Positions 35,616-36,709 of a DNA stretch of 64,000 bases are shown piece by piece; position 1 is the first letter of the stretch, and every line of letters begins with the position of its first letter. The notes beneath the pieces are model-generated. The model did not search any database and was not told the origin of the DNA. It was given only the letters and a program-made list of their open reading frames with translations. Origin of the DNA: Alphaproteobacteria bacterium (lineage in GTDB: Bacteria; Pseudomonadota; Alphaproteobacteria; Rickettsiales; 21-14-0-20-44-7); the NCBI GenBank assembly GCA_043757405.1, contig JAYVPI010000016.1:143623-207622 (forward strand), read 5' to 3'. The position numbers and the translations under genes were made by a program.

Positions 35616-36449
35616 TTAATGGGTCAAAGAAAGTTTTTGCTCTTTTTTATTCGTAACTGATTTCGGCGGCGGGGTTGGATAATCTTTGGCACTTTTTACA
35701 TCTAATTCCTCAGGAGATTTACATTCGATAAAATAATGAACTAATTCCGCATCTGGAGAATTACAAACTTTATGCTCCATAGCTGCGCCGGTTACAATAG
35801 CTCGAAAATTCAATTCGGGAGTGGTTGGCGCGGCGGTTATATTGAAGGCTGGATCGTGAAGCATGGCGGTGGTTTCGGAAAGAATGAAAGTGTGGCGTTG
35901 TTCGCTTTGCTTAGTTCGGCGGCCAACGAGCATATAATATTCGCCGGGTTTATTCAGGCCGGTATTTTCTGCTTCAAGCAGTCTGCGTTCTGCCGCGTTT
36001 GCGAGAACGTTAAATGATATGCCTTTTTCAAGGCATGAATTACGGGAAATTGGCGACATTTGATCTATGAACATATCGCCAGGCGTTCTGACATCTCTAT
36101 ATGGCCCGATTGATTTATTATCATCCATAACTTTTTGAACATGAGAGAATAATTTTTCTTCCCACCTCTGGCGGTCTTGCATTGTCCAATTTTTGTCAGC
36201 AATAAGATGCGTTACTTCATCATCAGCGAGTAAATTTGTATATATTTTATTCAAAGATTCATGCAGGGCAATTATGTAAGGGGATTTTTTCTTTGACCAA
36301 TCCATAATTCGTGGTGAATCGTCGGAATCTCTTACTGGAATAATAATAAGCCCCTTGTCCGGTAGGATTCCATCAATGCTGCCATTGAGTAAAAATTTTC
36401 CGGAAATGGCGTTATCGTCTGCGTTTAATGGGATTATGTTTTTTGTCAT
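35616..36449 (-). CDS. Hypothetical protein with a candidate transglutaminase-like Cys-His-Asp arrangement
   Basis: A 277-aa orphan, AT-richer by eye. Candidate catalytic residues are C139 (SRNSCLEKGISFNVLANAAERR), H186 (QRHTFIL) and D199 (MLHDPA), in the order and spacing typical of the TGase/papain-like fold. No homolog recognised. Confidence 0.5.
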   Translation of the reverse strand: MTKNIIPLNADDNAISGKFLLNGSIDGILPDKGLIIIPVRDSDDSPRIMDWSKKKSPYIIALHESLNKIYTNLLADDEVTHLIADKNWTMQDRQRWEEKLFSHVQKVMDDNKSIGPYRDVRTPGDMFIDQMSPISRNSCLEKGISFNVLANAAERRLLEAENTGLNKPGEYYMLVGRRTKQSEQRHTFILSETTAMLHDPAFNITAAPTTPELNFRAIVTGAAMEHKVCNSPDAELVHYFIECKSPEELDVKSAKDYPTPPPKSVTNKKEQKLSLTH

Positions 36450-36481
36450 CGCTAATGACTATAGCGAAAAGATTAATGGAT

Positions 36482-36709
36482 TTAAACCAAAATATTGAGT
36501 ATCGCGCCACGATCAGGATAGCGGTTGCCAGCTATCATTTTCAGTGCTGTATCAATGCCTGATTTGATGTCATCATTGGACGGAAGGGCCAGAAAATCGC
36601 CCTTTTCGCGGACGGTTTTGCTCGGGCTATATTGATTTTGCCTTAAGTACGAGCTATCTTCCGTGGATATACGGCGGTTCATGTTTATCGGCAAAAATTC
36701 TGAACTCAT
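36482..36709 (-). CDS. Hypothetical small protein (75 aa) upstream of the 277-aa orphan
   Basis: ORF track only. It runs in the same direction, 32 nt upstream of the 277-aa gene. No family recognised. Confidence 0.4.
   Translation of the reverse strand: MSSEFLPINMNRRISTEDSSYLRQNQYSPSKTVREKGDFLALPSNDDIKSGIDTALKMIAGNRYPDRGAILNILV

Follow-up and report, generated by a model that had tools for sequence, protein, structure and literature searches.

What the 277-aa protein encoded between a gabD-like gene and a gene for a DAO-family oxidoreductase does, and whether it works together with the 75-aa protein encoded next to it, are the questions raised by the locus studied here. In the window, i.e. 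the whole 64,000-nt stretch of alphaproteobacterial DNA that was analysed, the 277-aa gene (35616..36449, minus strand) is preceded by the 75-aa gene (36482..36709, minus strand) and followed by the gene of a gabD-like aldehyde dehydrogenase (34208..35572, minus strand; PF00171, E 3.7e-151, and synteny). Divergently from the 75-aa ORF runs the gene of a DAO-family FAD oxidoreductase (36751..37950, plus strand; PF01266, E 1.9e-66, and conserved synteny). An earlier note on this DNA, made from the sequence alone, had placed two AT-richer ORFs between gabD and a dadA-like gene, and the Pfam matches on either side bear out this position. The 277-aa gene lies 32 nt from the 75-aa ORF and 43 nt from gabD, with which it is tightly packed in the same direction. 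Neither gap contains a terminator-like site, and promoter-like and terminator-like sites were not more frequent than in shuffled sequence. As to base composition, the large ORF (GC 40.6%, GC3 36%) is clearly AT-richer than gabD (GC 50.7%, GC3 62%), the DAO gene (GC 50.4%, GC3 57%) and the window as a whole (GC 47.9%), while the same claim holds only weakly for the 75-aa ORF, which is just slightly AT-richer (GC 44.3%, GC3 49%).

The two ORFs had been read as an orphan gene pair, the smaller one encoding a chaperone, an immunity protein or a substrate of the larger. The distribution of the small protein speaks against this view. A profile search of the protein database retrieved 12 clusters of its family, and a local HMM found it in 39 of the 99 loci compared, always within ∼2 kb of a DAO-family gene (for instance at L007:6001-6231, L009:3985-4227, L014:502-735, L015:1876-2106, L038:7169-7411 and L045:8150-8383). 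Its members are 75 to 88 aa long and end in [W]DRGSILN[IL]xV (DRGAILNILV in the window); they have no match in Pfam, NCBIfam or PHROGs, and a scan of the genome-contig collection with the small-ORF alignment gave 0 matches. On L004, a metagenome contig of 1.7 kb, a small ORF 74% identical to the 75-aa protein likewise precedes a homologue of the 277-aa gene. The DNA alignment of the two small ORFs displays many synonymous changes across an identical C-terminus (AGNRYPDRG-ILNILV), which, together with a dN of 0.17 at saturated dS, indicates that the 75-aa ORF is a real coding gene.

The surroundings of this small gene are largely stable. In the contigs of its relatives, the order is DAO gene (minus), small ORF (plus), aldehyde dehydrogenase, M23 peptidase and FtsK, the dehydrogenase starting 25-44 nt after the small ORF in L007, L009, L010, L011, L016, L014 and L015. 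In L012 and L013, a ParD-like antitoxin gene stands between the small ORF and gabD (L012:5117-5386, L013:528-797). In L008, the dehydrogenase has been lost and the small ORF is followed by a split M23 peptidase gene; a 261-aa ORF at that place was considered as a homologue of the 277-aa gene and rejected, being the N-terminal part of that peptidase. In wider Alphaproteobacteria, a DAO gene is followed by an alpha/beta-hydrolase-like ORF, the small ORF and an acyl-CoA-dehydrogenase-like ORF, both "-like" ORFs being named by eye from their N-termini. Altogether, at least seven related genomes possess the small ORF and lack the 277-aa gene (L007, L009/L010, L011/L016, L012/L013, L014, L015 and L008). 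Judged from these comparisons, the small gene is ancestral to the DAO/gabD locus and its product is a widespread unnamed small protein of Alphaproteobacteria.

Since related loci carry the small ORF directly followed by gabD, the 277-aa gene is a low-GC insertion between the two. It is absent from this very site in L007, L009, L011, L014, L015 and L016, and in 6/6 loci the family gene lies 3.5 to 7.4 GC points under the surrounding DNA. The ParD-like gene that occupies the gap in L012 and L013 in place of the 277-aa gene identifies this intergenic site as a variable spot. The ParD-bearing gap of these two loci is the counterpart of positions 35573-36481 of the window; a ParE-containing pair (L002:5658-6156) also adjoins another homologue, P0004. 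No convincing scar of a mobile element was seen at the 277-aa gene, only an imperfect 11-nt direct repeat (repeat family D16), whose copies AAGTTTAATGG (35612-35622) and AAGATTAATGG (36469-36479) match at 10 of 11 positions and bracket the gene. Such a repeat pair is expected by chance in two short intergenic stretches with a probability of ∼0.05 according to a rough estimate, and it could at best weakly hint at an insertion scar.

The inserted gene also evolves at its own pace. Between the window and L004, the neighbouring proteins are 72-75% identical, whereas the 277-aa protein shares 31% identity with its counterpart. Accordingly, dN reaches 0.75 for the 277-aa gene, while the small ORF stands at 0.17 and the DAO gene at 0.21. 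Over the first 121 residues of the DAO protein, L004 is 84% identical to L012, 79% to L007 and 72% to the window. Since L012 and L007 lack the gene and yet are closer to L004 than the window is, its presence or absence does not follow the small DAO tree. On these thin data, the pattern suggests that the gene was either lost from some lineages or gained repeatedly at a variable spot.

How far does the 277-aa protein extend beyond this locus? A HMMER search of 1.84 billion representative proteins returned four relatives. The closest, P0002 (295 aa, E 1e-32, full length), is the one at the same site in L004, with a conserved start position; the others are P0003 (697 aa, L005), P0004 (406 aa, L002) and P0005 (458 aa). 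A degenerate DNA motif was then built from the invariant residues of the family; among 93 loci, it picked out every known member and nothing else. Run over the metagenome collection, it yielded one true new member (506 aa; L096, a TARA scaffold of 586 kb) and two chance matches in a TonB-dependent receptor; it had no match in viral contigs, nor had tblastn any in plasmids and phages. Every cluster looked up among the relatives has a single member, and a word-indexed protein search recovered the 277-aa protein itself only or, with a profile, itself and P0004 only. The survey of homologues proposed in the earlier note thus gives five distant relatives beside the 277-aa protein, which is therefore not an orphan in the strict sense, and the family is very rare, fast-evolving, unnamed and bacterial. 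Each of its genes sits isolated in a housekeeping neighbourhood, and the loci have no neighbour in common: the other homologues lie next to RluA and an amino-acid kinase, UvrB and ParDE, CysS and GltX, or a UbiH-like gene and ComF, and none of these four has a small-ORF neighbour. The members range from 277 to 697 aa through extra N- or C-terminal regions. In residues 1-340 of P0003 (L005:2244-3263), four or five repeats of ∼60 residues (LDP..T.EEIE..I.K...A..LY.EL) can be recognised by eye.

The earlier note had also proposed that C139, H186 and D199 form a catalytic arrangement, to be judged by their conservation among homologues. The three residues are at the positions given and their spacing of C-47-H-13-D is correct; the corresponding codons (36033..36035, 35892..35894 and 35853..35855, minus strand) were checked. 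In a six-sequence alignment, where identity to the 277-aa protein is as low as 16-31%, only 16 columns are invariant (D50, L82, W88, D92, R93, W96, E97, L100, Y117, R118, C139, E154, L158, Y171, H186 and G221). C139 and H186 are the sole invariant cysteine and histidine, while the residues in column 199 are D, D, E, N, E and E across the six sequences. Aspartate, glutamate and asparagine are the residues found as third triad member in papain-like enzymes. The probability that two residues picked beforehand both fall among 16 invariant columns out of 277 is (16/277)^2 = 0.003, a crude figure. The Cys-His-acid proposal thus passes the conservation test, with variation confined to D, E or N at the third position. 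Also conserved is the family signature W88-x3-D92-R93-x2-W96-E97-x-K-L100 (36150..36188, minus strand; W88, D92, R93, W96, E97 and L100 invariant), which maps to a predicted helix at residues 90-110 and whose degenerate DNA version is the motif compared with the 93 loci above. To our knowledge, the large conserved N-terminal part that carries this W-x3-DR-x2-WE helix (residues ∼45-120) has no known counterpart. At the other end, the Lys/Pro/Ser/Thr-rich tail (residues ∼242-277; 35616..35726, minus strand) is not conserved in the family and is probably disordered (pLDDT <50).

An AlphaFold2 model computed from a five-sequence alignment reached a pLDDT of 77 and a pTM of 0.81; the single-sequence model (pLDDT 34.6) was of no use. 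In the former, a helix that begins exactly at C139 and extends to residue 157 is predicted with a pLDDT of 85-95, and it precedes strands at 171-177, 185-191, 197-199, 204-208 and 226-228. H186 is the second residue of the second strand, and D199 ends the third. In the papain-like fold (in the SCOP d.3 sense), an antiparallel sheet packs on a helix, with the cysteine at the helix N-terminus, strand 2 bearing the histidine and strand 3 a polar group, all three adjacent in space (PMC10318531). The invariant C139, first in its predicted helix, occupies the first of these places, and the model puts H186 and D199 on the expected strands as far as linear order goes. The helix at C139, H186 on strand 2 and D199 on strand 3 hence agree with the order of a papain-like core, in linear order only. 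Foldseek gave no structural counterpart: against the PDB, the best match had an E of 0.15 and a TM-score of at most 0.2, with no cysteine peptidase or transglutaminase among the 50 matches listed, and nothing similar was found in BFVD. For want of such a neighbour, the papain-like fold is unconfirmed, and the 277-aa protein may be assigned to this fold class on the predicted order of its elements. Of the layout initially described, the Cys-helix and the C-H-D order thus agree with the model, while a structural match to solved members was seen neither with Foldseek nor in PDB searches.

The resemblance to particular families named in the earlier note (transglutaminase, LapG, NAT and YopT/AvrPphB) fares less well. 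In Pfam, five members searched at E values up to 10 and the sixth up to 5 did not match the models of cysteine peptidases, transglutaminase, NAT, NlpC/P60, Peptidase_C58, Peptidase_C93 (LapG) or Peptidase_C26/GATase. Otherwise, Pfam, NCBIfam, PHROGs and PADLOC returned nothing or noise (such as Cas8b at E 0.019 and, within a C-terminal extension, LmuC at E 4.7e-4), and PDB sequence searches with a single sequence and with a profile had no matches. By hhalign, the probability was 0.1% versus E. coli NhoA and also 0.1% versus E. coli MepS, the latter as a single-sequence target with low sensitivity. Against an alignment of five transglutaminase-family proteins from plasmids, it was 0.08% (E 0.65) and the Cys helix was left out. 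No sequence or fold match therefore links the 277-aa protein to any of the four named groups in Pfam, Foldseek or PDB profile searches, nor to transglutaminase or NAT in hhalign.

Likenesses of a looser kind do exist. The transglutaminase-like core (PF01841) has the same C-H-D order, and local motifs are similar, i.e. YY...G before the histidine, H-A-F-I-I-S-E and, in P0002, F-D-P-T versus GY...HAW.E...FDPT in transglutaminases. The only transglutaminase alignment produced by hhalign even sets H186 and D199 on the catalytic His and Asp, which we consider a coincidence of register and not evidence. Conversely, the His-Asp hairpin spans 13 residues here versus ∼17-20 in the five plasmid proteins. 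NlpC/P60 enzymes share the order of elements and come close in spacing: MepS, whose catalytic residues are Cys68, His119 and His131, has C-51-H-12-x where the 277-aa protein has C-47-H-13-D. The 277-aa protein differs from them in having no PF00877 match, no immunity gene (one is expected for secreted antibacterial amidases) and, by eye, neither a signal peptide nor a domain for cell-wall binding. With effector enzymes such as YopT/AvrPphB (C58), Cif, OspI, SseI/PMT-C3 and LapG, it has in common a stand-alone low-GC accessory gene, the Cys-His-acid order, variable extra domains and fast divergence, although it matches neither Peptidase_C58, LapG nor another Pfam model and none of their structures was among the Foldseek matches listed. 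The same holds for the papain-like superfamily at large: the cysteine comes first in a helix, an all-strand segment follows, and the histidine and the Asp/Glu/Asn lie on strands 2 and 3, but no member was matched by sequence or by Foldseek.

Several other explanations of the locus have to be weighed against a catalytic, accessory protein. A toxin-immunity, toxin-antitoxin or effector-chaperone pair is what the shared strand, the 32-nt gap and the identical arrangement in L004 would suggest at first sight. It is largely refuted by the occurrence of each gene without the other, the small one in at least seven related genomes and 39 of 99 loci, the large one in four loci, and by the contrast between a small ORF that changes like the housekeeping DAO gene and a partner that has diverged several-fold faster (74% versus 31% identity to the L004 copies); we regard it as highly improbable. 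Equally improbable is that the 277-aa ORF is a decaying or spurious lineage-specific frame. Low GC, extreme rarity and the lack of any database annotation would fit a spurious frame, yet conservation refutes it: full-length homologues exist in six genomes with 16 invariant residues, the comparison with L004 gives pN 0.475 versus pS 0.755 (pN/pS 0.63), the start is conserved with P0002, and the AlphaFold model is confident.

Two further readings accept a genuine protein and dispute its role. The PuuD enzyme works beside PuuB (DAO family) and PuuC (an aldehyde dehydrogenase) in putrescine use, and a gene that lies 43 nt from the co-oriented aldehyde dehydrogenase gene gabD, with a DAO-family oxidase encoded on its other side, no terminator-like site in either gap and a conserved Cys/His/acid set, might encode an amidase or thiol enzyme that serves the metabolism of a DAO/gabD catabolic cluster in the cytoplasm, a functional analogue of this PuuD-type Cys-His hydrolase. 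Relatives that keep the DAO gene, the small ORF and gabD and do without the 277-aa gene, homologues that adjoin unrelated genes elsewhere, an identity of 31% beside neighbours at 72-75% (a gap that is unusual in pathway enzymes) and the missing Peptidase_C26/GATase match make such a role quite unlikely. Slightly less unlikely, though still doubtful, is a non-catalytic adaptor or pseudo-enzyme whose Cys, His and acidic residue are purely structural or bind a metal. Cys/His/Asp sets can bind zinc as well, and no known catalytic family matches. Against this, column 199 is an asparagine in P0004, a poor metal ligand and yet a normal triad residue, the family has one invariant cysteine and one invariant histidine only, and a cysteine at a helix N-terminus followed by a strand-borne histidine and acid is the layout of thiol enzymes.

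We therefore give about an even chance to the proposal that an accessory gene in the conserved DAO, small-ORF and gabD locus encodes, in the 277-aa protein, a papain-type thiol enzyme that is new and very divergent. In such an enzyme, the role of nucleophile would fall to C139 at the helix N-terminus and that of general base to H186, which lies on the second strand after the helix; D199 on the third strand (D, E or N in relatives) would orient the histidine. The enzyme would act on a protein substrate by cleaving or transferring an amide or thioester bond, in the manner of a protease, deamidase, transglutaminase or acyl-transferase. D50, Y117/R118, E154 and the W-x3-DR-x2-WE helix may shape a family-specific substrate site. 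The protein is possibly a secreted effector that would leave the cell to act, most likely, on a eukaryotic host or prey. Indeed, the lack of a signal peptide (by eye) and of a conserved neighbour, the variable repeat or helical extensions of its relatives and a divergence several-fold faster than that of the neighbours fit external delivery better than a self-targeting toxin. In the same vein, the stand-alone, modular, fast-evolving and low-GC character of the gene is more in keeping with a delivered effector than with a toxin-immunity pair or a pathway enzyme. A more far-reaching version, which we hold to be rather unlikely, would see here a structurally new clan of Cys-His enzymes with its own fold elaboration and a unique W-x3-DR-x2-WE substrate module, an effector of undescribed chemistry or target employed by poorly known alphaproteobacteria and a small number of further uncultured bacteria; its own fold elaboration would be in line with the absence of a Foldseek neighbour despite a pTM of 0.81.

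As regards the organism, MAGs that carry the labels "uncultured Rickettsiales bacterium" and "Alphaproteobacteria bacterium CG11...44_7" come nearest among species-representative genomes, their DAO proteins being 53-57% identical, and the label "Rickettsiales" on these MAGs is the sole basis for a host association. Among the 26 window ORFs scanned against Pfam, no secretion-system genes were seen. Since the window encodes SdhA, LeuA, AroA and a TonB-dependent receptor, besides Ffh, there is no need to regard the organism as obligately intracellular.

Other features of the window were recorded along the way. Its GC skew is very strong and even along its length, at +0.198 over positions 1-64000 and +0.12 to +0.30 in each 8-kb block regardless of gene orientation; in most loci compared, syntenic relatives included, the absolute value is 0.00-0.09, and it is 0.13 in L005, one of the homologue loci. 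A 165-aa ORF (38118-38615, minus strand) adjoins a response-regulator gene and has weak matches to RhoGAP (E 0.011) and Hpt (E 0.079); it may encode a divergent phosphotransfer protein. At its position, L007, L008, L011 and L012 carry a Pfam-less ORF of 163-176 aa, matched by position and size only. Four ORFs without a Pfam match at E 1e-5 (42750-43757, minus, 335 aa; 44848-47148, minus, 766 aa; 47301-48389, plus, 362 aa; 56506-57633, plus, 375 aa) and a 645-aa Sel1-repeat protein (21981-23918, minus) may be further lineage-specific proteins.

To conclude, this analysis corrects the reading of the two ORFs as a gene pair: what lies next to the 277-aa gene is the gene of a small protein that is widespread in Alphaproteobacteria, is linked to DAO, gabD and acyl-CoA-dehydrogenase genes and, of the two unknowns, may have the broader relevance. 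If the proposal made for the 277-aa protein is true, the papain-type thiol enzymes serving bacteria as effectors and toxins would gain a new family, and an extremely rare one. C139, H186 and D199 would then be clear catalytic residues to mutate, and the distinctive conserved helix may define a new substrate site.
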